From a virus (lineage: Duplodnaviria; Heunggongvirae; Uroviricota; Caudoviricetes), in IMG/VR virus record IMGVR_UViG_2537562019_000027: DNA of 14,568 bases. One strand, given 5' to 3'. Every line of letters begins with the position of its first letter. Positions within the stretch are counted from its first letter, which is position 1. The notes below the pieces were generated by a model. That model had not been told where the DNA came from. It was given only the letters and a program-made list of their open reading frames with translations, and did not search any database. Below are positions 1-11,929 of the stretch, in pieces. Made by a program: the position numbers and the translations under genes.

Positions 1-467
<467 letters not shown>

Positions 468-564
468 TTAGTTTTTTTATTCGCATAAAGAATATACTTA
501 ATAATATATACAGTAAGAACCATTAGTAACGATAACCCTGCTATCAGCTCAGTGATGTAGATAG

Positions 565-834
565 TCATTGCTTCATCTCCCTTTCCATTTCATCAATGTC
601 AACGTCATCAGGAAGATGGGAGCAATACGCCGCTATACCATGATGATTTATCTCATACCCTTTGAACGTTACCATCTGGCGCGTAATCTCAACTTCGTTC
701 AGGAATCCGTCATCGCATAACTGCCTGGCTATTTTCGATTTGGTCTGGATTATTGGTAGTGCCTGTTCTTTCAAAGCGCATGATATTTGTGCATCCCATG
801 CCTTTTCGAGAATGGCTAATTGTTTTTTATTCAT
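565..834 (-). CDS. Hypothetical phage protein (89 aa), translationally coupled to the helicase gene
   Basis: ORF with ATG overlapping the helicase stop (TGATG at 836-832); no family recognised. Confidence 0.55.
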   Translation of the reverse strand: MNKKQLAILEKAWDAQISCALKEQALPIIQTKSKIARQLCDDGFLNEVEITRQMVTFKGYEINHHGIAAYCSHLPDDVDIDEMEREMKQ

Positions 835-2270
835 CAGAATCCTCCTTTCTTCTTGGACTGCGGTTCCTCGCGTTCACGTCGGCGCATTTCAGCAGACTGT
901 TGGTCTGTGTCATAAATAGCGCCATTTGCCTGAATGCAATACACCGTGCCGGTATTGCCATGACGATTGAGGCGAAGGATTAGTTCGGTTTCACCAGGAG
1001 GAACGCTGTCATCAAAAGCACCTTCACGATGGATCCCCACCCAATAATCGCAATCCTGTTCAATCTGCCCTGTATCTCGTGAGTCACTTGGTAATGGGCG
1101 TTTATTGGTTCGGCTTTCCAGTGCGCGGTTAAGCTGTGTCAGAAGCACAACAACGCAATCAAGCTCTTTGGCAAGGTTCTTCAGTCCTTTGGTGATCATG
1201 CCGTAAGCAAGGTCGTTGCGATCGGCCTTTTCAGCGGTCATTAGTGTCAGGTAATCGACCAGAATCATGCCAACACATCCTTTTTCTCGCTTGATTCGAC
1301 GGCTTTCGCTGACGATTTGAGCCAGAGATAATCCCGGCGTGTCGTCGATGTAAAGCAGGTCGATTTCACTCAAGCGATTGGCTGTTTCGATCGCCCTGTT
1401 GAAGTCACCATCGTAATCACCCTGATAGCCGTCATCAGCGTCATTTGTCGCCGGAAGGTAAAAAATATTCGGGTTAACACCTGACTTCTGTCCTACCAGT
1501 TTTTCCAGTATCTGGTCACCGGGCATTTCAAGGCTGAACATCAGAGCGGGCTTTTTCTCATGCACTGCGCAGTTGATTGCCATCTGGCTGTATAGCGTCG
1601 TTTTCCCCATCTTAGGGCGAGCGCCAATGACAAACAGAGAGCCTTTCACCAGACCTTTCGGTGACAGCATCCTGTCCAGCGATGGGATCCCTGTGCTCAT
1701 TCCCCGTTGTTCGCCTGATGGGTCAAATCGCTTCTCAAGGTCGCTAACCCAGTCTTCCATGACCTCGCCAAATGAGCGAAGGCCGCGACGCGATCCGGTT
1801 TTTGCATGGTCTGTCAGTTGCGTGAAAATCGCCTGAATAGCTTCGTACTTCTGCGTCGCAGTCATTCCGTTGCGGGAATAGAGCAATTCCGTCGCTTCAG
1901 TCATGCGGTTGATGGCGTAGCGTTCCATTGCGGTTTCGCGAACCTGCATTGCATAGGCAACGATGTTTGCGGCGCTCGGCGTGTTCTTTGCGATCTCAGC
2001 GATATAAGCAAAACCGCCAACAGACGCCGTTAACGATTTACGCTCCAGTTCATCGAAAAGCGTCAGGCCATCTACTGGCTTTTGCTCCCGGTGCATTCTG
2101 GTTATTTCTTCGAAAAGGATTTTGTGTGATCGGCTGTAAAATGAATCAGGCTTCAGCATCGCCAGAACTTTCTGGACGCGCTCACTGCTGTCATCATCCA
2201 GAAGCAATCCACCAATCACCGCCTGCTCTGCCTCGATGCTATGGGGCGGCGCATAAAAATTATCGGTCAT
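834..2270 (-). CDS. DnaB-family replicative DNA helicase (P22 gp12-like)
   Basis: 478-aa ORF with Walker A GARPKMGKTT and DnaB-like layout. Start taken as ATG at 2270-2268 (MTDNFYAPP...); the ORF track extends to a GTG at 2285. Sits immediately downstream of the O-like gene. Confidence 0.9.
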   Translation of the reverse strand: MTDNFYAPPHSIEAEQAVIGGLLLDDDSSERVQKVLAMLKPDSFYSRSHKILFEEITRMHREQKPVDGLTLFDELERKSLTASVGGFAYIAEIAKNTPSAANIVAYAMQVRETAMERYAINRMTEATELLYSRNGMTATQKYEAIQAIFTQLTDHAKTGSRRGLRSFGEVMEDWVSDLEKRFDPSGEQRGMSTGIPSLDRMLSPKGLVKGSLFVIGARPKMGKTTLYSQMAINCAVHEKKPALMFSLEMPGDQILEKLVGQKSGVNPNIFYLPATNDADDGYQGDYDGDFNRAIETANRLSEIDLLYIDDTPGLSLAQIVSESRRIKREKGCVGMILVDYLTLMTAEKADRNDLAYGMITKGLKNLAKELDCVVVLLTQLNRALESRTNKRPLPSDSRDTGQIEQDCDYWVGIHREGAFDDSVPPGETELILRLNRHGNTGTVYCIQANGAIYDTDQQSAEMRRREREEPQSKKKGGF

Positions 2271-3150
2271 CGTGTTCACCCTCACGAACTTTCAGGTAGG
2301 TATTATCGTTAAGCAGGAAATCAAATCCCTTTTTGTGCCAGACGGTTCCTCGCTGATGGTTTGGGCGCTCTTCGAACATCCATCGGCAATTTTCGCCTAC
2401 GTATCTCAAATAATTTCTCCAGTCCTGCATCGTGAACCCATGCCCGTCAAGCTGGCGGGTTATCACTCCGGCTTTGCGCCAGAACGTTCGGATCTGGTTT
2501 TTACGCTTGTCATTCAGTGCGCGGATTCTTGGCGCTTCAGGAAGGATTTCGTGGTAAGCATCGACAACATCCTGACAGCTAACGGAAGGTTTTTTCTTGT
2601 CAGACTTTTTGTCTGCTGTGGCACTCTCTAATACGTCAGTATTAGAGATATTATTTATATTATTGTTTATGGACAACCGTTGGACAACCGTTGGACAATC
2701 TCCGCTGAGAGCCTCGCCATTACTGGTGTTTGCGTTGGACAACCGTTGGACAACCGTTGGACAATTTTTTGCCTGAAAATCGTCATATTTAACGATTGTA
2801 AACAGGCTAAATTTCTTCCCCATCGAGCAAATATTAAGCATCCCTTTCGACTCAAAAGTCCGTAATAAGCTCCGAACTTTGTTGTCGGGGATGAATGTTT
2901 CTCTGACCAGCGACGGGCGTCCAGTTATCATCTGACCGCGATCAACAGTTATCGGCCCGATATCCGTATTGACGACAGTAGATTCGTGATTAGCCTTGAG
3001 GATTAAGTGAAGCCAAAGATGTACTGCCTGAGAGTCCTTATAGAGCCTGCTGTCCATAAACTGGCGGTGTATATAGGCATACCCCATACTGGATGCCTCC
3101 TGATGTTGTACAGGGTTATGCCTGTAATCAGCTAACTTAACGACGCCCAT
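2260..3150 (-). CDS. Replication initiator, lambda O-like (iteron-binding), with the origin inside the gene
   Basis: 296-aa ORF directly upstream of and overlapping the helicase gene; contains two clusters of tandem 11-bp iterons plus AT-rich flank, as for lambda ori within O. Confidence 0.75.
   Translation of the reverse strand: MGVVKLADYRHNPVQHQEASSMGYAYIHRQFMDSRLYKDSQAVHLWLHLILKANHESTVVNTDIGPITVDRGQMITGRPSLVRETFIPDNKVRSLLRTFESKGMLNICSMGKKFSLFTIVKYDDFQAKNCPTVVQRLSNANTSNGEALSGDCPTVVQRLSINNNINNISNTDVLESATADKKSDKKKPSVSCQDVVDAYHEILPEAPRIRALNDKRKNQIRTFWRKAGVITRQLDGHGFTMQDWRNYLRYVGENCRWMFEERPNHQRGTVWHKKGFDFLLNDNTYLKVREGEHDDR
2668..2765. repeat. Replication origin iterons: two clusters of 3 tandem copies of GTTGGACAACC, with AT-rich flanks
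   Basis: Tandem copies at 2671-2699 and 2734-2765, separated by about 35 bp; AT-rich stretches at 2641-2670 and 2765-2815. Confidence 0.8.
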
Positions 3151-3298
3151 GTTTCACTCCTGCTTTGGCTAGTCTGTAAACACCAACAAGGCGCTCTGCG
3201 AACGCCCTGTTATTTGCTGCGGCTACCACTAATCCCTCAGGTGAATCAGGGTGTCGAATCTCTTCTTTTTCCTGGTATTTCTTACGACGTTTTGTCAT
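3137..3298 (-). CDS. Small hypothetical protein (53 aa) between cII-like and O-like genes
   Basis: ATG at 3298-3296 preceded by AGGAG at 5-nt spacing; stop just inside the O-like start region. Translation MTKRRKKYQEKEEIRHPDSPEGLVVAAANNRAFAERLVGVYRLAKAGVKHGRR. Not in the ORF track (under 60 aa). Confidence 0.45.
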   Translation of the reverse strand: MTKRRKKYQEKEEIRHPDSPEGLVVAAANNRAFAERLVGVYRLAKAGVKHGRR

Positions 3299-3330
3299 AA
3301 TTACTCCTGTGGATTGATCCAGTAATTCCC

Positions 3331-3627
3331 TCAGAATTGCATATCAATTTGCTTAAAATCCTCGGTGGCGGCCGGGGATTTTTTCTTTGTGATTTCATCA
3401 AGCGCATACTTAAAAGCCCTGCTAATTGGACTGATGTCTGATGCCATTCCGAAAGCACACAAGACCGAAGCAATAAACCGCCAGTCCGTTCTGCTTATCT
3501 TCGATTCATGACAACCAATCATCTTTGCCAGACCGCGCTGAGTAAGCGTTGACAGGTTGATAAGTAAATCTGTTTCAGCGCGATCAACGTCACGCTGTGT
3601 TGGCTTGCTGTAGCTTGCTTGTGCCAT
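3331..3627 (-). CDS. cII: CII-like transcriptional activator (P22 C1 / lambda CII family)
   Basis: 98 aa; C-terminus KKKSPAATEDFKQIDMQF resembles lambda CII ...KKRPAATERSEQIQMEF; located after cro and nutR as in lambdoid phages. Confidence 0.75.
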   Translation of the reverse strand: MAQASYSKPTQRDVDRAETDLLINLSTLTQRGLAKMIGCHESKISRTDWRFIASVLCAFGMASDISPISRAFKYALDEITKKKSPAATEDFKQIDMQF

Positions 3628-3660
3628 TTGTTAATTTTCCTATATTGATATTGAGTTATA

Positions 3661-3685
3661 GCGGCACACCCAATGGATTTGCCGC
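3661..3685 (-). terminator. Hairpin between nutR and cII (tR1-like candidate)
   Basis: Inverted repeat GCGGCA...TGCCGC with 6-bp stems; no clean U-run, so a rho-dependent or weak terminator at best. Confidence 0.3.
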
Positions 3686-3694
3686 TGATGTTTG

Positions 3695-3735
3695 CTCACC
3701 CGGTTAGAGGTGAAAGGCCAGAACTGTTAAAGAGC
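3695..3735 (-). promoter_or_regulatory. nutR: boxA (GCTCTTTAACA, minus strand 3735-3725) and boxB hairpin (3714-3695)
   Basis: boxA matches the consensus and is identical to the nutL boxA; boxB stem TCACC/GGTGA with a loop containing CUAACC, shared with the nutL boxB loop. Confidence 0.6.
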
Positions 3736-3742
3736 AATTTGC

Positions 3743-3928
3743 TTATGCCGCTTGGCGGTAAGCACTTTCTTGATACTTCAGGGCGCCAGCTGTAACGATT
3801 TCCAATCGATAGGCGTCTTTCTCTGGGATAACTTCTTTCCACTGAGAGACTGCTGCATCGCTAATGCCTAGTGCTTTAGCAACAGCACGCTGGGTTCCGA
3901 AGTGGTCAATAACATCTTTTTTGTACAT
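3743..3928 (-). CDS. cro: Cro repressor (P22 Cro-like)
   Basis: 61 aa, MYKKDVIDHFGTQRAVAKALGISDAAVSQWKEV..., which I recognise as near-identical to P22 Cro; divergent from c2 across an operator region. Confidence 0.9.
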   Translation of the reverse strand: MYKKDVIDHFGTQRAVAKALGISDAAVSQWKEVIPEKDAYRLEIVTAGALKYQESAYRQAA

Positions 3929-4008
3929 AGACTCGCTCCGAAATTAAAGAACACTTAAATTATCCACCAAAGGAATCTTAAGTCAAGTTTATTTAAGATG
4001 TCTTAACT
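3929..4008. promoter_or_regulatory. OR/PR/PRM region with P22-type palindromic operators
   Basis: Minus-strand PR: TTGACT (3986-3981), 17-bp spacer, ATAATT (3963-3958), GGAG before the cro ATG. Operator-like palindromes ATTAAAGAACACTTAAAT (3943-3960), around 3969-3989, and ATTTAAGATGTCTTAACT (3991-4008). Confidence 0.7.
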
Positions 4009-4659
4009 ATGAATACACAACTGATGGGTGAGCGTATTCGCGCTCGCAGAAAAGAACTCAAGATTAGGCAGGCTGCCCTTGGCAAGATGGTTGGCGTGTC
4101 TAATGTTGCTATTTCCCAATGGGAGCGATCTGAAACTGAGCCCAATGGCGAAAACCTATTGGCCTTAGCCAAGGCTTTGCAGTGCTCCCCTGATTACCTG
4201 TTGAAAGGAGAGGATAGTCTTTCAAACATTGCCTATCACAGCAGGCATGATCCAAGAGGTTCGTATCCTCTAATTAGTTGGGTAAGCGCAGGATGTTGGA
4301 TGGAAGCTGTAGAGCCATATCATAGGCGTGCAATAGATAACTGGTACGACACAACGGTAGATTGTTCTGAAGACTCTTTTTGGCTCGACGTTAAAGGCGA
4401 TTCAATGACTGCCCCGGCAGGACTGAGTATTCCTGAGGGGATGATTATTCTCGTCGACCCAGAAGTCGAACCACGTAATGGAAAGCTGGTAGTCGCCAAA
4501 CTTGAAGGGGAAAACGAGGCGACATTCAAAAAGTTAGTTATTGATGCCGGTAGAAAATTCCTGAAACCACTCAATCCACAATACCCAATGATTGAAATCA
4601 ATGGGAACTGTAAAATCATTGGCGTTGTCGTTGATGCCAAGCTAGCAAACCTTCCTTAA
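4009..4659 (+). CDS. c2: C2/CI-type prophage repressor (HTH plus LexA-like S24 peptidase domain)
   Basis: 216 aa, MNTQLMGERIRARRKELKIRQAALGKMVGVSNVAISQWERSE...GDSM...K, which I recognise as near-identical to P22 C2; start abuts the operator (leaderless-like). Confidence 0.95.
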   Translation: MNTQLMGERIRARRKELKIRQAALGKMVGVSNVAISQWERSETEPNGENLLALAKALQCSPDYLLKGEDSLSNIAYHSRHDPRGSYPLISWVSAGCWMEAVEPYHRRAIDNWYDTTVDCSEDSFWLDVKGDSMTAPAGLSIPEGMIILVDPEVEPRNGKLVVAKLEGENEATFKKLVIDAGRKFLKPLNPQYPMIEINGNCKIIGVVVDAKLANLP

Positions 4660-4679
4660 GGGGCTTTCGCCCCTTTTTT
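4660..4679 (+). terminator. Rho-independent terminator after c2
   Basis: GGGGC-TTTC-GCCCC followed by TTTTTT immediately after the c2 stop. Confidence 0.75.
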
Positions 4680-4723
4680 ATTTCCCGTTAAAAATCAAAG
4701 ACAAACTAAATTCACGCCCATAA

Positions 4724-4778
4724 AATTAAGTTTTCTTCAAAAATGCACTTGACCAATAAATTAAGAAGTCTTAAATTT
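4724..4778 (+). promoter_or_regulatory. OL/PL: promoter TTGACC-17-TAAATT overlapped by P22-type operator palindromes
   Basis: TTGACC at 4749-4754, TAAATT at 4772-4777; operator-like AATTAAGAAGTCTTAAATT (4759-4777) and AATTAAGTTTTCTTCAA (4724-4740). Confidence 0.6.
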
Positions 4779-4823
4779 AAGCCATCAGCAGGACGCTGGA
4801 AGCCAAACGGAACAGATTGGCAG

Positions 4824-4863
4824 GCTCTTTAACATCGACGGACTCTCAACCTAACCGTTGAGA
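4824..4863 (+). promoter_or_regulatory. nutL: boxA (GCTCTTTAACA, 4824-4834) and boxB hairpin (4844-4863)
   Basis: boxB is TCTCAAC-CTAACC-GTTGAGA, a 7-bp stem with 6-nt loop; lies between pL and N. Confidence 0.65.
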
Positions 4864-4973
4864 CCAGAACTTGAGTGGTTTTGGGGATGGCGCGAATTGC
4901 AGCTGCAAGACAGCGATCGAGAAGATAAGCACCTCGACGCGTCATGCGCCAAAGCCACTTAAAGGAGACCATC

Positions 4974-5279
4974 ATGGTAACCATTGTCTGGAAAGAATCC
5001 AAAGGTACGGCAAAAAGCCGCTACAAAGCTCGCAGAGCAGAACTTATTGCCGAGCGACGCAGTAATGAAGCACTGGCGCGAAAAATTGCGCTAAAGCTCT
5101 CTGGTTGCGTCAGAGCAGACAAAGCAGCATCACTAGGAAGCCTTTGCTGCAAGAAGAAAGAAGAAGTCGTTCGAAAAAATAGAAGTATTTATTACAAAGA
5201 TTCAAACCCGTTAGGAAACAAAATTCATGCAGTCCAAAAAATAAAATTGTACAGTAAACTACCGTACGGTGCTTATTGA
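4974..5279 (+). CDS. N: Antitermination protein N (phi21-type arginine-rich motif)
   Basis: ATG at 4974 with AGGAG 6 nt upstream; N-terminal GTAKSRYKARRAELIAERR is the arginine-rich boxB-binding motif I recall for phage 21 N; positioned after pL/nutL. Confidence 0.8.
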   Translation: MVTIVWKESKGTAKSRYKARRAELIAERRSNEALARKIALKLSGCVRADKAASLGSLCCKKKEEVVRKNRSIYYKDSNPLGNKIHAVQKIKLYSKLPYGAY

Positions 5280-5281
5280 GT

Positions 5282-5620
5282 ATGCTTATGGTGAAAAAGA
5301 CTATTTATGTTAATCCTGACCGCGGACAAAACAGAAAAGTATCTGATAGAGGTCTTACATCTCGAGACAGGAGGAGAATAGCGAGATGGGAAAAAAGGAT
5401 AGCATATGCATTAAAAAACGGTGTAACACCTGGATTTAATGCTATAGATGACGGTCCTGAATATAAAATTAATGAAGAACCAATGGACAAAGTTGACAAA
5501 GCATTAGCAACACCATTTCCTCGCGATGTCGAAAAAATTGAAGATGAAAAATATGAGGATGTAATGCACAGAGTTGTTAATCACGCTCACCAACGAAATC
5601 CAAATAAAAAATGGTCATAG
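5282..5620 (+). CDS. Hypothetical protein (about 110 aa), low-GC moron gene; start uncertain (ATG 5282 or 5288)
   Basis: ORF in an AT-rich segment immediately after N, followed by a strong terminator; weak SD; no family recognised. Confidence 0.45.
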   Translation: MLMVKKTIYVNPDRGQNRKVSDRGLTSRDRRRIARWEKRIAYALKNGVTPGFNAIDDGPEYKINEEPMDKVDKALATPFPRDVEKIEDEKYEDVMHRVVNHAHQRNPNKKWS

Positions 5621-5641
5621 CCCACTTCGGTGGGTTTTTTA
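5621..5641 (+). terminator. Rho-independent terminator
   Basis: CCCAC-TTCG-GTGGG followed by TTTTTT, directly after the stop of the 5282-5620 ORF. Confidence 0.65.
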
Positions 5642-5656
5642 TTGTCTGAACAAATC

Positions 5657-5745
5657 TAATTTACTACCGCAAGCCACGCAGTGAAATGGGTGTGACTTGT
5701 GTTGGTCGCCAGAAAATGAAATTAGGCAGCAAACCACTTATTTGA
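5657..5745 (+). other. Diverged second copy of the N gene 3' end (no start codon); probable recombination remnant
   Basis: In-frame translation YRKPRSEMGVTCVGRQKMKLGSKPLI* parallels the C-terminus of the N ORF (YYKDSNPLGNKIHAVQKIKLYSKLPYGAY*), with nucleotide similarity (CAAAAAATAAAATTGTACAGTAAAC vs CAGAAAATGAAATTAGGCAGCAAAC). Confidence 0.5.
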
Positions 5746-5753
5746 GGTGAGAT

Positions 5754-6224
5754 ATGACAAAATCATGGAGCGTACCTTTTCCTGAATCAGAAACTGAACA
5801 TGATGGAATGCCTGTTTTCTGGAGATTCCAGGCGACAGTTGAAGAAGATGGGATAAAAATATTCGCACTTCAATATATAGCTTTTCATCAGACAGAGCAT
5901 TATGCATGGTTGGTTCCTGCGCATTGGATTGTTGATTTTAAACCAGCACCAAATCAGTGGTTACAGGAATGGAAACAAAAGAGAAATAGATATGCAATTA
6001 AGAAAGTAGCAAAAAATGCAGAAAGATCTTTTGCATTCCCAACGAAGAAACTTGCCATTGAAAGTTTATTGCGCCGGAAGAAATACCATTTAATGAGAAT
6101 CAAACAAGATTTGGCTGTTGTATCAACTCTTGTTGATGGGATGAAGAATATTGATACATCAACACCAGATATTGAATATAACTTTGGGCACAACCAAGAA
6201 ACAGAAAATTGGGTATTTTATTAG
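5754..6224 (+). CDS. Hypothetical protein (156 aa), low-GC moron gene
   Basis: ATG with GAGGTGAG SD; AT-rich codon usage; no family recognised; no obvious transmembrane segments. Confidence 0.6.
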   Translation: MTKSWSVPFPESETEHDGMPVFWRFQATVEEDGIKIFALQYIAFHQTEHYAWLVPAHWIVDFKPAPNQWLQEWKQKRNRYAIKKVAKNAERSFAFPTKKLAIESLLRRKKYHLMRIKQDLAVVSTLVDGMKNIDTSTPDIEYNFGHNQETENWVFY

Positions 6225-6418
6225 TACGAGTAAGCACTGTGTATTCATTCCAACGAGTGAATACACGGAGCAATGTCGCTCGTAACTAAACAGGAGCCGA
6301 CTTGTTCTGATTATTGGAAATCTTCTTTGCCCTCCGATGTGGGGGGCTTTTTATATGCATACCAATAACGCTTCACTCGAGGCGTTTTCGTTATGCAATC
6401 AAACAGAAGGAGCATCCT

Positions 6419-6589
6419 ATGCAACAGTTCGCTATTGCAGGGGCGGCATCGGTTCGCCCTTTCAACCCGATTTTATCGGTACAGCATTCACGAAAAAATA
6501 TTTTAACCGGAGCAGACTTTAAACAACCAAGAATGAAAAGCTTGCTCGAAAAGCTTTGGGATATTTTGAAACAACAAGGCCGTCCATGA
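6419..6589 (+). CDS. cIII: CIII-like protein (FtsH inhibitor family, lambda CIII homolog)
   Basis: 56 aa, AAGGAG SD; MQQFAIAGA...SLLEKLWDILKQQGRP resembles lambda CIII MQYAIAGW...SLLERITRKLRDGWKRLIDILNQPGVP. Confidence 0.7.
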   Translation: MQQFAIAGAASVRPFNPILSVQHSRKNILTGADFKQPRMKSLLEKLWDILKQQGRP

Positions 6590-6744
6590 GTTTTACAGAT
6601 AACTGGTCAGACGAAGAATTCATTCGTCAGATGAAAGAATTAATCGGTAACGAAGGAGATATTCATGTCACTTGCAACCACAGTGAAGGAGAGCAAGTTA
6701 CAGAGACGCATGTACACGCAGAAAGCTCTCTGGTATCGCCATAA
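6586..6744 (+). CDS. Small hypothetical protein (52 aa), in the kil-like position after cIII
   Basis: ATGA start/stop overlap with cIII; MSFTDNWSDEEFIRQMKELIGNEGDIHVTCNHSEGEQVTETHVHAESSLVSP; function inferred only from position. Confidence 0.4.
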   Translation: MSFTDNWSDEEFIRQMKELIGNEGDIHVTCNHSEGEQVTETHVHAESSLVSP

Positions 6745-6843
6745 TGGCGACCGCGAAGGAATGCGGGTATGCCTTAATTTGTCCCGAGTCGAAGTATTAA
6801 ATCAGCGTTATTTCCTTGGGCCGTGTCCATTCTGAGGTGAATT

Positions 6844-7551
6844 ATGGATTTGAATAAATTCGATGAGCCATTCAGCCCTGAAGATATCGAATGGCGAATA
6901 CAGCAAAGCGGTAAAACACGCGATGGCAAGGTGTGGGCTATGGTGCTGGCTTATGTCACGAACCGGGCAATCATGAAACGCCTGGACGATGTTTGCGGCA
7001 AAGCAGGATGGCGCAATGAATACCGCGATATTCCCAACAACGGCGGCGTTGAATGCGGCATATCAATAAAGATTGATTCCGAATGGGTAACCAAATGGGA
7101 TGCTGCTGAAAACACGCAGGTAGAAGCCGTCAAAGGTGGTCGTTCAGGTGCAATGAAGCGCGCTGCCGTTCAGTGGGGAATCGGTCGGTATCTGTATAAC
7201 CTTGAGGAAGGTTTCGCACAAACATCTCTCGATAAAAAGCAGGGATGGCACAGGGCAAAACTCAAGGATGGAACAGGATTTTACTGGCTCCCTCCATCGC
7301 TGCCGGGATGGGCAATACCAGCATCAGATAACAAACCATCACCAGAAAATACCAACCAGAAATCTCCATCGGTTGACTGCGAACAAATCCTGAAAGACTT
7401 CAGCGATTATGCGTCAACAGAAACTGACAAGAAAAAACTCATCGAGCGTTATCAGCGTGACTGGCAATTAATGGCTGGCAACGAGGAGGCGCAGGCTAAA
7501 TGCGTTCAGGTAATGAACATCAGAGTTAACGAACTAAAACAGGCGGCATAA
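6844..7551 (+). CDS. Rad52/Sak-family single-strand annealing protein (phage recombinase)
   Basis: 235 aa with GAGGTG SD; GGRSGAMKRAAVQWGIGRYLY motif is characteristic of Rad52/22-family annealing proteins; sits in the recombination module. Confidence 0.75.
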   Translation: MDLNKFDEPFSPEDIEWRIQQSGKTRDGKVWAMVLAYVTNRAIMKRLDDVCGKAGWRNEYRDIPNNGGVECGISIKIDSEWVTKWDAAENTQVEAVKGGRSGAMKRAAVQWGIGRYLYNLEEGFAQTSLDKKQGWHRAKLKDGTGFYWLPPSLPGWAIPASDNKPSPENTNQKSPSVDCEQILKDFSDYASTETDKKKLIERYQRDWQLMAGNEEAQAKCVQVMNIRVNELKQAA

Positions 7552-8019
7552 ATGTCTCACTTGGACGGAATTATTAAAAGATTCGAGTCCAGCTACAAAG
7601 TTAATGAAACAACAGGTTGCTGGGAGTCTACCTATTCAAAAAACAAAGGAGGATACACAAAATTTGTAGCCTTTGGCGTAACAATGCTTTCTCATCGGGT
7701 TGCTTTTGAGCTTTATCACTCCCCCATTCCATCTGGGAAGATGGTTTGCCACAAATGCGATAACCCATGCTGCGTTAATCCTGAACATCTCTTTTTAGGT
7801 AGCGCGCAAGAAAACATGGACGACAAGATAGCAAAAGGAAGGCATCGTGGAGCCAAGAAAGGTCATGCTCATCATGGTGCAAAATTAACAGAGTGGCAGG
7901 TTATAGAAATTAGGAAAAGACTCTCTGAAAAAGAGAGTCAGTACAAGATAGCAAAAGACATGGGTGTATCTCAATCAATTATAAGCAACATAAAAACTGG
8001 CAAGAGGTGGAGCAAATGA
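7552..8019 (+). CDS. HNH endonuclease (free-standing, homing-endonuclease-like)
   Basis: 155 aa; [26 protein letters not shown] is an HNH motif with cysteine zinc ligands; C-terminal HTH-like tail; coupled to flanking genes by TAAATG and ATGA overlaps. Confidence 0.8.
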
Positions 8020-8522
8020 GTTCTCGCGGGATAAATAAGGTGATTATCCTTGGTCGGGTAGGACAAGACCCGGAAGTTCGATACTCACCATCAGGAACAG
8101 CGTTCGCTAACCTGACAATAGCCACGTCAGAACAATGGCGAGATAAAAATACTGGCGAGCAAAAGGAATTGACTGAATGGCATCGTGTTGCTGTATCCGG
8201 GAAACTGGCTGAGGTCGTGGGGCAGTATGTGAAAAAAGGTGATCAGATTTATTTCGAGGGAATGCTGAGAACCAGAAAGTGGAAAGACCAGTCAGGGCAA
8301 GACCGTTACACAACCGAGGTTCATGTCGGAATTAATGGCGTGATGCAAATGCTTGGCGGCATTGGCGACAGCAAACAACAAGCAGCCAGCAGGCAATCAC
8401 AGAAGCCACAGCAGCAATCATCACCAGCACAACACAACGAACCTCCGATGGATTTTGACGACGATATACCCTTTGCACCAGTAACTCTCCCCTTCCCTCG
8501 TCACGCTATTCACGCAATTTAA
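8016..8522 (+). CDS. ssb: Single-stranded DNA-binding protein (SSB) with a C-terminal extension past the DDDIPF tip
   Basis: OB-fold N-terminus [29 protein letters not shown]..., Gln/Pro-rich linker, acidic tip MDFDDDIPF followed by 15 extra residues ([15 protein letters not shown]); start ATG 8016 with GAGGTGG SD. Confidence 0.9.
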
Positions 8523-8530
8523 GGACTTAC

Positions 8531-9079
8531 ATGAATCACTTAATGGTTGACCTTGAAACAATGGGCAACGGGCCATACGCGCCAGTTATTTCTATTGGGG
8601 CGGTATTCTTTGACCCGAATACCGGAGAAACAGGAGAAGAGTTCTCGGTAAATATCTCGCTTGAGTCATCAATGCGATATCGGGCGCGTCCTGACGCTTC
8701 AACGATTTTATGGTGGATGGAACAGAGTGAAGAAGCCAGAAAATCGCTAACCAGCAACACTCAAGAGCTTTCAACAGCTCTTTCATGGTTATCTGAATTC
8801 ATCATAAAGAACGCTAACCACAAATTCGTTCAGGTTTGGGGGAATGGAGCATCATTTGACTGCGTTATTCTCCGCAACAGTTATTCGCTGACAGGGCAGC
8901 CAGTTCCGTGGCAGTGGTGGAATGACCGCGACGTAAGAACAATCGTCGAGCTTGGAAAGGTAATAGGATTCGACCCTAAGCGAGATATGCCATTCAAAGG
9001 AACTCGCCACAACGCGCTTGATGATGCCATCCACCAAGCCAAATACGTTTCAGCGATCTGGAAAAAGTTAGCTAAATAA
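8531..9079 (+). CDS. DnaQ-like DEDDh 3'-5' exonuclease
   Basis: 182 aa; Exo I MVDLET, Exo II FDC, Exo III HNALDDA; AAGGA SD. Confidence 0.75.
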   Translation: MNHLMVDLETMGNGPYAPVISIGAVFFDPNTGETGEEFSVNISLESSMRYRARPDASTILWWMEQSEEARKSLTSNTQELSTALSWLSEFIIKNANHKFVQVWGNGASFDCVILRNSYSLTGQPVPWQWWNDRDVRTIVELGKVIGFDPKRDMPFKGTRHNALDDAIHQAKYVSAIWKKLAK

Positions 9080-9095
9080 TCAACCGGAGAAAAAC

Positions 9096-9389
9096 ATGCC
9101 AGCGCCTTTGTATGGTGCGGATGACCCGCGCCGCTGTTCCGGCAATTCTGTATCGGAGGTGCTGGATAAATTCAGAAAAAACTACGATCGAATAATGTCT
9201 CTACCGCAGGAAACGAAAGAGGAAAAGGAATTTCGCCACTGTATATGGCTTGCAGAGAAAGAAGAACGCGAGCGAATTTACCAGACATCAATCCGACCAT
9301 TCCGCAAAGCCACATATACCCACTTCCCTGAAATTGACCCGCGCCTGCGTCATTACCGCTCACGCTATGGCGCTATCAGTAATGACTGA
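9096..9389 (+). CDS. Hypothetical phage protein (97 aa)
   Basis: ATG with GGAG SD; tightly packed with neighbours; no family recognised. Confidence 0.55.
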   Translation: MPAPLYGADDPRRCSGNSVSEVLDKFRKNYDRIMSLPQETKEEKEFRHCIWLAEKEERERIYQTSIRPFRKATYTHFPEIDPRLRHYRSRYGAISND

Positions 9390-9399
9390 GGAATTAACA

Positions 9400-9690
9400 A
9401 TGAAAACAAAGAAGCTAAACATCGACATCGGCAAATACGTTATTACCGGAACCAAACACGATCTGATTCTTAGCGAAAGAGGAATTATCAAAGAAGGCGA
9501 GAATGCAGGGAAAGAAACACTAAGTCGTATCGGTTATTACAGCAAGTTTGAGCATCTGGTCAAAGAGTTATGCAACCGTGAAATCCTGTTATCTCAGGCG
9601 CAGACGCTACAGGATATTCAGCAGCATATCGATACTTTAGGTGTATCACTTAGCATGGCTGTTGACCAGTTCATGGAGAGTAAATCATGA
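9400..9690 (+). CDS. Hypothetical phage protein (96 aa)
   Basis: ATG at 9400 with GAGG SD 7 nt upstream (the ORF track extends it upstream in the same frame); no family recognised. Confidence 0.5.
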
Positions 9691-9854
9691 GAGGACTTGC
9701 ATACAATCCCGGCATTCTTCCGGCAGAAATGATTATTCGCCAACGCGTAAAGCCAATGCCATCGAGAGAGGAATTGCTTAAGAGAAATGGTTTCGGTTCT
9801 GTTAATGACAACAAATATCTGAATGCGATGTGGCGCAAAGGAGGCAACCAGTGA
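9687..9854 (+). CDS. Hypothetical small protein (55 aa)
   Basis: ATGA overlap with the upstream stop; [55 protein letters not shown]; not in the ORF track. Confidence 0.4.
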
Positions 9855-10003
9855 GTAACCGTTTTTACATGATGTGCTTGCGTGAAACTGTAGGTGATAA
9901 CGCCTCATTCCATTGCCATAACGGCAATGAGCATGGCGAGATGGCTATGAAGCATGGAAAACGCCTGTCGAAGTATATTGTGATGAGTGGGGTGGGTGAA
10001 TGA
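9851..10003 (+). CDS. Hypothetical small Cys/His-containing protein (50 aa), coupled to the methyltransferase gene
   Basis: GTG start preceded by GGAGG at 6-nt spacing, GTGA overlap upstream and ATGA overlap with the MTase start; [31 protein letters not shown]... Confidence 0.4.
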
Positions 10004-10728
10004 TTTGCCTTCACAACGCAGACTGCTTTGACATCTTTCCGCAAATCGCCAGCAACTCCGTAGATCTTGTATGTGCCGATATTCCATATGGAACAACTCG
10101 GTGTCGCTGGGATTCTGTTCTCGACCTGCAGTTGATGTGGAAGCAGATTTACCGTATTTCCAAACCGAACGCTGCAATTGTTCTGTTTTCCGCTCAGCCT
10201 TTTACCAGCGTGCTGGTCAACAGCAATCTTCGTGACTGGAAAACAGAATGGATTTGGGAAAAGCCACACGCGACAGGATTTTTGAACGCAAAAAAACAAC
10301 CTTTAAGAGCGCATGAAAATATTGAAGTTTTTTACAGAAAGCAACCGACATACAACCCACAGATGACGTATGGGCACGCCAGAAAAACCTCAACAAGAGG
10401 TAGGCTGAATACTGATGTATATGGCGATGCGCTGAAAAAGGTCGTTTACGATTCAACAAGTCGCTATCCGAGAGACGTGCAGAAATTCTCCAGCGACAAG
10501 CAAAAGCAGGCACTTCATTCAACACAAAAGCCACTGGCTCTGGTGAGATATCTGATTGAAACATATAGCAATATTGGCGACACAGTGTTGGATTTCACTA
10601 TGGGTAGCGGAACTACTGGCGTTGCGTGCCAACAATCAGGACGCCGATTTACAGGAATAGAAAAAGATCCAGAAATTTTTCGTATCGCATTAGAGCGTAT
10701 GGGAATTAAACAGGAGCATGCAGCATGA
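10000..10728 (+). CDS. Orphan DNA N6-adenine (or N4-cytosine) methyltransferase, beta-class
   Basis: 242 aa; DIPY (DPPY-type motif IV) near the N-terminus and LDFTMGSGTTGVA (AdoMet motif I) near the C-terminus, plus STQKP motif; no adjacent restriction endonuclease evident. Confidence 0.9.
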   Translation: MICLHNADCFDIFPQIASNSVDLVCADIPYGTTRCRWDSVLDLQLMWKQIYRISKPNAAIVLFSAQPFTSVLVNSNLRDWKTEWIWEKPHATGFLNAKKQPLRAHENIEVFYRKQPTYNPQMTYGHARKTSTRGRLNTDVYGDALKKVVYDSTSRYPRDVQKFSSDKQKQALHSTQKPLALVRYLIETYSNIGDTVLDFTMGSGTTGVACQQSGRRFTGIEKDPEIFRIALERMGIKQEHAA

Positions 10729-10746
10729 TTTTTGTGGAGGCAACCA

Positions 10747-11133
10747 GTGAGCGAAATTAATTACCAGGCACTGCGTGAGGCGGCGGAACGTGCAATTCCA
10801 GCAATGGAACGCCTGTTAATGTTGCCAGCTGATGATGATTTGTTAAGTGAACAGGAACTTAAAGATTACGGTGTGGATATTGATGCGCTCAACGCCTTCA
10901 AATTTCTGGCCGGACCAGAAACCGTGCTGGCGCTGCTGGATGAGCTGGAAGCCAAAGACAAGCGGATTGCTGACATGGATGCGCGGGAGGTTGTACTGCC
11001 GCGTGCGCACGATGTTCACCCATTAGGGCCGCAGTCGGCGAAAATTTTTTGTGAGTTTCACCGGAGTATCGTGAACAGATGCGCCGATGAGATTCGCAAG
11101 GTTGGCGTCAAAGTCAGCATCAAGGGGAATTAG
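10747..11133 (+). CDS. Ea22/Ead-like prophage protein
   Basis: GTG start with GGAGG SD (the ORF track extends to TTG at 10732); VSEINYQALREAAE...ALLDELEAKDKRIA is typical of E. coli prophage Ea22-like proteins (from memory). Confidence 0.6.
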   Translation: MSEINYQALREAAERAIPAMERLLMLPADDDLLSEQELKDYGVDIDALNAFKFLAGPETVLALLDELEAKDKRIADMDAREVVLPRAHDVHPLGPQSAKIFCEFHRSIVNRCADEIRKVGVKVSIKGN

Positions 11134-11137
11134 GGAT

Positions 11138-11929
11138 ATGGCTGAACTAACCAAAGAATGGCTGAAGCAAACTATCGCTCAATACGAAGCCAATCGTGAT
11201 GAATTACCGTTTGGACTGGATACCAACAGTGCCATTGAGCTTCAGGCGTTCAAGTTGGCGCTGGCATCGCTGGAAGCAGAACCAGTTGCTTATATTTTCA
11301 AACATCCGGCTGGAAAATTATTCTGGGCTTTAACGGATGAAAGCAATAAAGAGCAATCGGACGTTATTCCTGTTTATGCCGCCCCTCCAGTGCCAGTAGT
11401 ACCTGCTGCATTACCTGAGAACGACGATGAGGACGGGCATGACATTGATTATCTTGAGCCATCTGAAGTTTACTCGCTTGGGCGAACAGCTGGCTGGAAC
11501 GCCTGCCGTGCTGCCATGCTTCATGGTGCCGAACCTGTAAGCCAAACTTACAAGTTGCCTCCCCTGTCATCCAGAGAAGTAAACGACGCGGCATGGAAAT
11601 TACACAACATGCTGACTGAACACGGCCCTCTAAATGGGTGTCAGTTCAACAATTTGAAAGAGTGCTTCTATGAGGCATTAAAGGTCGCAATGCGCAACTA
11701 TCCGGTAACTCCGGATGGTTGGATAAGCTGTAGTGAGCGAATGCCGAACGATAAACAGTATGTTTGGTGTTGGGGTAAGTCTTACGGCTGGACTGAGTGC
11801 AATACCTTCGAAGGGTATTACGATTGGTCGAGAAACAAATGGTGGGCAGTTACTGACGATGGGGAAGAACCGGCATCGAAAGTAACTCACTGGATGCCTC
11901 TACCAGAACCGCCTCAGGAGGTGAAGTAA
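11138..11929 (+). CDS. Prophage protein with DUF551-like C-terminal domain
   Basis: ATG at 11138 right after the upstream stop; Trp/Cys-rich C-terminus DGWISCSERMPNDKQYVWCWGKSYGWTECNTFEGYYDWSRNKWWAVTDDGEEP resembles DUF551 (from memory). Confidence 0.65.
   Translation: MAELTKEWLKQTIAQYEANRDELPFGLDTNSAIELQAFKLALASLEAEPVAYIFKHPAGKLFWALTDESNKEQSDVIPVYAAPPVPVVPAALPENDDEDGHDIDYLEPSEVYSLGRTAGWNACRAAMLHGAEPVSQTYKLPPLSSREVNDAAWKLHNMLTEHGPLNGCQFNNLKECFYEALKVAMRNYPVTPDGWISCSERMPNDKQYVWCWGKSYGWTECNTFEGYYDWSRNKWWAVTDDGEEPASKVTHWMPLPEPPQEVK

Follow-up and report, generated by a model that had tools for sequence, protein, structure and literature searches.

Mosaicism in lambdoid phages has long been described by a linker, or boundary-sequence, model, in which short sequences conserved among temperate phages lie between non-homologous modules and keep the placement and expression of whatever is exchanged (Susskind and Botstein, 1978; Botstein, 1980; Clark et al., 2001 on HK620; summarized in PMC3233612, PMC2327257, and PMC2839356). 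Here, we describe a locus of this kind in a 14,568-nt stretch of tailed-phage DNA (IMG/VR record IMGVR_UViG_2537562019_000027, class Caudoviricetes), hereafter the window, in which an exact 16-bp direct repeat, GGAGGCAACCAGTGAG, brackets the gene of a DNA methyltransferase and a leader open reading frame (ORF) of 50 amino acids (aa). The locus is a fresh instance of the known linker mode of lambdoid mosaicism, and we consider it likely that the 16-mer is the invariant core of an intercistronic junction, acting as a linker where recombination swaps whole genes in register. It differs from the classical linkers in being a defined translation signal that overlaps the upstream stop codon, and in delimiting single genes rather than functional modules. 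The 16-mer string appears in no paper of the searchable literature, a search that did not extend to Clark et al. (2001).

Three other described systems share features with this locus. The promoter-early stem-loop (PeSL) cassettes of T4-type phages are elements of about 100 bp that contain a promoter and a terminator-like stem-loop and are transcriptionally autonomous; mini-circles have been shown, and shuffling by homologous recombination between copies has been proposed (Arbiol et al., 2010, PMC2839356). As here, they are repeated regulatory sequences at the gene boundaries of a hyperplastic, non-essential region, and ORFs lying between two copies correspond to a single copy in a relative. 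However, the junction described here has a core of 16 nt (about 80 nt with its flanks), provides only a Shine-Dalgarno (SD) sequence and a start codon, and lies inside one operon; the 16-mer with its usual flanks contains neither a sigma-70 promoter nor a stem-loop and has no Rfam match, and the assignment was rejected. Integron cassettes, delimited by attC and attI, are likewise single-gene units bounded by a recurring sequence, with an upstream promoter and a slot that is empty or variably filled. In contrast, the 16-mer is not an attC-type imperfect palindrome, the junction overlaps coding sequence and start and stop codons, and no integrase is annotated in the surrounding 22 kb, so an integron cassette was also discarded. 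Finally, morons, as Hendrix and colleagues are said to have described them in 2000, come with a promoter and a terminator of their own and lack any conserved sequence at their flanks. The resemblance here is the addition of an accessory gene, for a putatively orphan DNA methyltransferase, between conserved neighbors of a temperate phage, but the unit is co-oriented within an operon and shows no promoter or terminator signal above background (by consensus scans only), and it was not classified as a moron.

A repeated translation signal around the methyltransferase unit

String search and repeat finding both recover the 16-mer at the two positions first annotated (Table 1). In each copy, GGAGG is followed by a 6-nt spacer and by a GTG that is the annotated start codon in RefSeq/PGAP, and both proteins begin with V-S, in agreement with the initial reading of each copy as the SD sequence and start of a gene. 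The two contexts differ upstream: in copy 1, the GTG of the 50-aa ORF shares bases with the TGA (9852-9854) that terminates the DUF2737 gene, and the last DUF2737 codons (K-G-G-N-Q-stop) are encoded by the junction itself, while the 7 nt preceding copy 2 are non-coding. The repeat is exactly 16 nt long, as the flanks of the two copies match at only 4 of 30 positions upstream and 8 of 30 downstream, and no longer degenerate repeat surrounds them, the flanks being at random identity. The 896 bp first given as the distance between the copies is the start-to-start spacing; the intervening DNA measures 880 bp (9856-10735).

The initial annotation had also held that such a repeat is not expected by chance. 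A chance origin is indeed rejected, although the argument needs refinement: about 2.5% of random sequences of 14.5 kb should contain some exact 16-nt direct repeat (our arithmetic, 1.06e8 position pairs divided by 4^16). The specific sequence GGAGGCAACCAGTGAG was seen in none of 200 dinucleotide shuffles of the window, and chance is excluded mainly because the same 16-mer recurs at gene junctions elsewhere, in at least 120 IMG/VR contigs.

On these sequences, the junction reads as a translation signal composed of GGAGG, a 6-nt spacer, and GTG (sometimes ATG), usually overlapping an upstream TGA, and this stop/start overlap would allow translational coupling. In two samples chosen independently of the 16-mer (relatives of DUF2737 and of Ea22, see below), GGAGG and T13-G14-A15 are near-invariant, position 12 is G or A, and most of the variation falls on spacer positions 8-9 and on position 16. 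This position-by-position pattern indicates a constraint on the SD sequence and the start/stop overlap, and not on the encoded peptide tail. In most contexts conservation runs further: the ...AAQLRK tail adds some 20 nt on the upstream side, and the Ea22 N-terminus some 45 nt on the downstream side. Spacer variants mostly, but not strictly, track the downstream gene, a linkage too weak for placing crossovers.

Members of unrelated protein families located upstream of the junction all end in ...RKGGNQ-stop (window 9828-9854; loci L003-L122), and the last codons of this tail are the SD sequence and spacer of the next gene. Ea22 proteins were reported to share a C-terminal K/R-G-E tripeptide, whose significance was called unknown (Dydecka et al., 2020, PMC7093339). 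In both cases divergent C-terminal domains share a short end motif with lysine or arginine and glycine, but the equivalent tail at the present loci, R-K-G-G-N-Q-stop, is simply what results when the next gene's SD sequence and spacer are translated. The junction is thus likely to explain the conserved K/R-G-E tripeptide of Ea22 proteins, an explanation that might extend to the K-G-E of lambda.

An inverted near-copy of the junction was also observed (9841-9859 against 11882-11900, 17 of 19 positions complementary). Its second arm lies within the DUF551 gene and encodes a V-T-H-W-M-P-L motif of that gene; it is probably a coding-sequence coincidence, though an unexpected one for this specific 16-mer.

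Recurrence, reassortment, and empty sites

The exact 16-mer was found in at least 120 viral contigs in an IMG/VR scan, a sample that was picked by the 16-mer itself and includes related prophages, and whose counts are not independent events. In every occurrence among the matches listed, a substantial ORF begins at the GTG, and in most of them a frame ending in ...(A)(A/E)Q(L/I)RKGGNQ stops at the overlapping TGA; in the listed contigs, the 16-mer always lies at a stop/start overlap or directly ahead of a start. The downstream genes are mostly Ead_Ea22, but also PAPS_reduct, DUF7446, gene X (described below), the unit formed by the 50-aa leader (X') and the N6_N4_Mtase gene, and families without a Pfam match. 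The upstream proteins belong to Ead_Ea22 or have no Pfam match, and their N-termini differ.

This diversity of partners is reassorted across the junction. When 138 occurrences, from loci L002-L165 and from the two sites in the window, were clustered by their 30-nt flanks, 19 classes were obtained upstream and 13 downstream. These occur in 32 combinations and form seven complete four-gamete rectangles. In one of these, (DUF2737 / JL22-gp100-like) x (X' / Ea22), all four combinations exist and only the 16-mer is common to them. The search at other gene boundaries proposed in the initial annotation therefore finds the 16-mer with many different neighbors on both sides. Homology also breaks at the 16-mer, as seen from the edge of the similarity to phage JL22 at 9840 and from the unrelated flanks of the two window copies, and edges of high-scoring segment pairs (HSPs) accumulate at 9855 and 10736, although this sample is biased.

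Two or three same-strand copies, 241-2435 nt apart, are present in 26 of the 120 listed loci. Among these, a 335-aa PAPS-reductase-domain gene lies between two exact 16-mers with a spacing of 1054 nt (L074, 7783-8852), and an 84-aa DUF7446 gene between two others spaced by 241 nt (L058, 2720-2976). The DUF7446 unit occurs after three different upstream genes.

The two samples chosen independently of the 16-mer give exact matches in 59-61% of cases. At the 3' ends of DUF2737 genes, the exact 16-mer is present in 48 of 79 close relatives, and 78 of them have it with two mismatches or fewer; at least eight different genes follow DUF2737 in these relatives. At the 5' ends of Ea22 genes, it is exact in 46 of 78 relatives of the window gene, and present with at most one mismatch in 60. 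Phage HK620 has a copy with one mismatch, GGAGGCAGCCAGTGAG, at its hkaH/hkaG junction (hkaG being Ea22-like), whereas P22 has no copy within three mismatches, and not all P22-like phages therefore have the junction.

The initial annotation had suggested looking for relatives with a single 16-mer and no methyltransferase, and such empty sites exist. In L313, L316, and E. coli A28, the DUF2737 gene is followed by one 16-mer and by Ea22, with no methyltransferase; the flanks of these sites are 92-98% identical to the outer flanks of the window (92-94% and 96.5-98% for L313 and L316). A synthetic sequence of the empty site, used as query, aligned without interruption to E. coli A28 and TUM1880, and in other strains the slot between DUF2737 and Ea22 holds other genes. 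Conversely, the X'-methyltransferase unit occurs elsewhere: the P1-like phage JL22 and about a dozen E. coli plasmids of 70-370 kb (most of 90-120 kb), P1-like ones among them, carry the identical unit behind a different gene, with homology to the window beginning exactly at 9840. It was found in 18 of 5,426 complete E. coli genomes, where it is chromosomal in six and plasmid-borne in 12.

Origin of the unit and alternative explanations

The 50-aa ORF does lie between the copies together with the methyltransferase, as initially annotated, but it is a frameshifted fusion remnant and not a gene in its own right. It consists of the N-terminus of a resident gene, here called gene X (9856-9929), joined to the leader of the methyltransferase. 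Gene X encodes 214 aa, commonly follows DUF2737 at this junction, starts natively at the left 16-mer, and meets Ea22 at its 3' end through a sequence different from the 16-mer. Its first ~26 codons are kept in the window and ~30 in an undeleted, 62-aa form of the leader, which ends in ...CDEWGG-stop (L123, 2811-2999; L126, 828-1016). A 40-bp deletion between 9929 and 9930, a position at which 32 HSPs terminate, frameshifts this form into the 50-aa one seen in the window, JL22, L124, and L125, and the leader stop still overlaps the methyltransferase ATG after the deletion. The N-terminal ~30 codons of gene X were also observed as a shuffled module (L205, 2664-3100; L005, 11223-11867), with three alternative continuations: the 214-aa body, the leader of the methyltransferase, and a C-terminus of DUF551 type (...SHWMPLPEPPQEAK).

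In E. coli E94 (L336, 2293-3283), the methyltransferase occupies the same slot without the left 16-mer. It sits there behind MKQMTLIEMDGFLKGKC plus DEWGG-stop, an hkaH-like N-terminus of which 17 codons are kept in the fusion; DUF2737 carries a frameshift in this strain, and the methyltransferase ORF reads through a variant of the right junction, GGAGACAACCAGTGAA. Because of the X' and E94 fusions, the methyltransferase must have entered this slot at least twice via joints inside resident genes. Its original capture was thus by illegitimate joints within these genes and not at the left 16-mer, and the methyltransferase kept the resident start signals, using a 16-mer-type junction on its right only. 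When the unit later passed between P22-like prophages and P1-like plasmids, the homology available may have been, on its left, the 16 bp with a further 74 bp from the N-terminus of X and, on its right, some 200 bp from the 5' end of Ea22.

The idea that the repeat was passively inherited, with X and Ea22 each starting natively at the family-wide junction and the methyltransferase spliced illegitimately into gene X and later spread by long homology, without any mobility role for the 16-mer, is the strongest alternative, although we regard it as rather unlikely. It agrees with the native start of X at a 16-mer-type junction and the codons of X kept in both leader forms, with the second, independent in-gene fusion in E94, and with the methyltransferase homologues at 81% amino-acid identity or less, which sit in unrelated contexts without the 16-mer (no junction context was found at 43 loci of more distant homologues). 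Moreover, the X N-terminus occurs in 233 further E. coli records, many of them P1-like plasmids, making about 90 bp of left homology available. Nevertheless, passive inheritance leaves unexplained the four pairings of gp100-like or DUF2737 with X or Ea22 that have the 16-mer alone in common, as well as the identical spacer across 13 downstream gene classes; somewhere in this history, an exchange must have taken place within the 16-mer, or precisely at one of its ends, at least once.

The same observations, with some others, weigh against the linker reading. The left copy is the native start of gene X, whose N-terminus is retained in the window; E94 lacks that copy; and the crossovers that brought the methyltransferase here cannot be pinned to the 16 bp. 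Sixteen base pairs are short for efficient homologous recombination, and since longer similarity flanks the 16-mer in most contexts, crossovers may lie beside it and not inside it. The contig sample, as noted, was selected by the 16-mer. In addition, junctions of another kind serve about 23% of Ea22 starts as well as the hkaH-like genes found after DUF2737, so the 16-mer is neither needed for expression nor the sole point of exchange. The initial proposal of a cassette exchanged by recombination at a conserved gene boundary is thus partly supported, by the empty sites, the recurrence, and the JL22 edge, but the original capture of the methyltransferase did not take place at the left 16-mer.

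Convergent selection, by which an optimal ribosome-binding site and start codon would have arisen independently at many genes, is very improbable. The invariant positions of the SD sequence and of the start and stop codons, with spacing fixed at 6 nt, are what it would predict, but unrelated contexts all share the same spacer, CAACCA, which is functionally neutral, as well as the AG after the start codon, and other Ea22 starts work with entirely different junctions. Descent is also indicated by the AAA-prefixed 19-mer, for which the species-representative genomes scanned gave eight matches, two in Escherichia and six in metagenome-assembled records, a number close to the roughly four expected by chance (our estimate). 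Least credible of all is a target-site duplication or site-specific insertion of a methyltransferase cassette by a transposon, integron, or integrase, since, despite the direct repeat bracketing the unit and the single copy at empty sites, none of the genes between the copies is annotated as a transposase or integrase, repeat finding reported no inverted repeat linking the two termini of the 880 bp, the 16-mer also flanks units unrelated to this one and stands single at hundreds of junctions, both copies have native contexts, and E94 lacks the left one. A transposon target-site duplication was rejected specifically, as only the leader ORF and the methyltransferase lie between the copies and the same 16-mer is found at every site.

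In the linker reading that we prefer, the junction would belong to the early-left accessory operon (ea, equivalent to exo-xis) of P22-like and lambdoid prophages of Escherichia, and also to a block made up of these genes in P1-like phage-plasmids. Dozens of otherwise unrelated gene pairs sharing it would provide a patch of identity at which co-resident phages and prophages could recombine, the swapped genes keeping their translation signals, with crossovers predicted within or immediately beside the junction. The X' leader and the methyltransferase would fill one slot between DUF2737 and Ea22, and the unit is bracketed by two copies because it occupies this slot. A candidate enzyme for such short-homology exchange is the Rad52-like annealing protein encoded in the operon itself, which could act together with the exonuclease and SSB; with longer flanks, RecA could do the same. 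Phage recombinases of the Rad52-like type are reported to dominate exchange on short and diverged homology (PMC3945230), and RecET is able to use 5-13 bp, at low frequency (PMC2327257).

A bolder extension, by analogy with PeSL mini-circles, is that the 16-nt core with its ~80-nt context could be a preferred, high-frequency exchange site, an integron-like but integrase-free cassette system of the early-left operon in which phage annealing proteins would loop out and capture single genes between copies. We put this forward only tentatively and think it doubtful. If true, defense and modification genes, such as the methyltransferase and the PAPS-reductase-like gene, would move between lambdoid prophages and P1-like phage-plasmids always in frame, with a translation start already in place.

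Prophage setting and significance

The window is identical to a region of E. coli O114:H49 strain 90-9280 (NZ_CP024240.1), the early-left operon of a P22-like/lambdoid prophage. The gene order annotated in RefSeq is a LexA-family (CI-type) repressor, several small genes, a Rad52/Rad22-family annealing protein, HNH, SSB, a 3'-5' exonuclease, anti-RecBCD, DUF5405, DUF2737, the 50-aa ORF, the DNA methyltransferase, ead/Ea22-like, DUF551, DUF4752, and torI, followed by host csc genes (Table 1). Past the DnaB-like helicase gene, at a distance of a few hundred bp and with one small hypothetical ORF in between, there is an istA gene of IS100 (IS21 family) (window 1-345; L001, 1-946). The prophage appears truncated on the side of the rightward operon and is probably defective.

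Table 1. Features of the methyltransferase locus and of the recombination genes upstream (window coordinates).
Feature	Position	Strand	Description and basis
Rad52/Rad22-family single-strand annealing protein	6844-7551	+	PGAP; same operon
HNH, SSB, 3'-5' exonuclease, and anti-RecBCD protein	7552-9389		Follow the Rad52-like gene
HNH endonuclease gene	7552-8019		Between the Rad52-like annealing protein gene and ssb; part of the recombination module
DUF2737 gene	9687-9854	+	Pfam PF10930, E=1.4e-29; PGAP
Junction copy 1	9840-9855	+	GGAGGCAACCAGTGAG; exact string search and repeat finding
Copy 1, SD sequence	9840-9844		GGAGG
Copy 1, spacer	9845-9850		CAACCA
Copy 1, start codon	9851-9853		GTG, followed by AG of a Ser codon
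50-aa leader ORF (X')	9851-10003	+	Alignment, X-family comparison, and translation of the L126 form
Beta-class N6/N4 DNA methyltransferase, 242 aa	10000-10728	+	Pfam PF01555, E=3.5e-29; PGAP annotation
7-nt spacer	10729-10735	+	TTTTTGT, from methyltransferase stop to copy 2; right-hand joint of the methyltransferase-specific DNA
Junction copy 2	10736-10751	+	GGAGGCAACCAGTGAG; SD sequence and GTG start (10747) of the ead/Ea22-like gene
ead/Ea22-like gene, 128 aa	10747-11133	+	Pfam PF13935, E=6.5e-21; conservation profile

The methyltransferase scores 102.8 bits against PF01555 (cutoff 26.7) and has the features of the beta class, with motif IV (DIPY) in the N-terminal part at residues 27-30 and motif I (FTMGSGTTG) in the C-terminal part at residues 199-207; its relatives in the PDB are DpnA, MboIIA, and CcrM. 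Judged from annotation only, no restriction enzyme is present in the 22-kb stretch around it, its neighbors being DUF2737, Ea22-like, and DUF551. Consensus scans of 9400-11400 gave no promoter-like site on the + strand for the unit and terminator-like sites no more common than in shuffled sequences. No Rfam family was found at the gathering threshold over the junction or anywhere in the window, and no Pfam family for gene X, the 50-aa ORF, or several of the junction-partner genes. To the right of copy 2, homology is prolonged by the conserved 5' end of the ead/Ea22-like gene (VSEINYQALREAAE...).

For the biology of these prophages, the junction could be used as a bioinformatic anchor for listing accessory and anti-defense genes in E. 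coli prophages and P1-like plasmids, and it offers a simple explanation for the conserved C-terminal tails of Ea22-family proteins. More generally, phage mosaicism has been debated between targeted exchange at conserved boundaries and random illegitimate joints filtered by selection. Our current understanding of it is unchanged; the route suggested here is an ordinary and long-proposed one. Sharply defined natural examples of targeted boundary exchange are few, and this locus supplies one, with a 16-nt core, a functional reading, many partner genes, and both empty and filled sites, while the same place also shows, in X' and in the E94 leader, illegitimate fusions inside genes.

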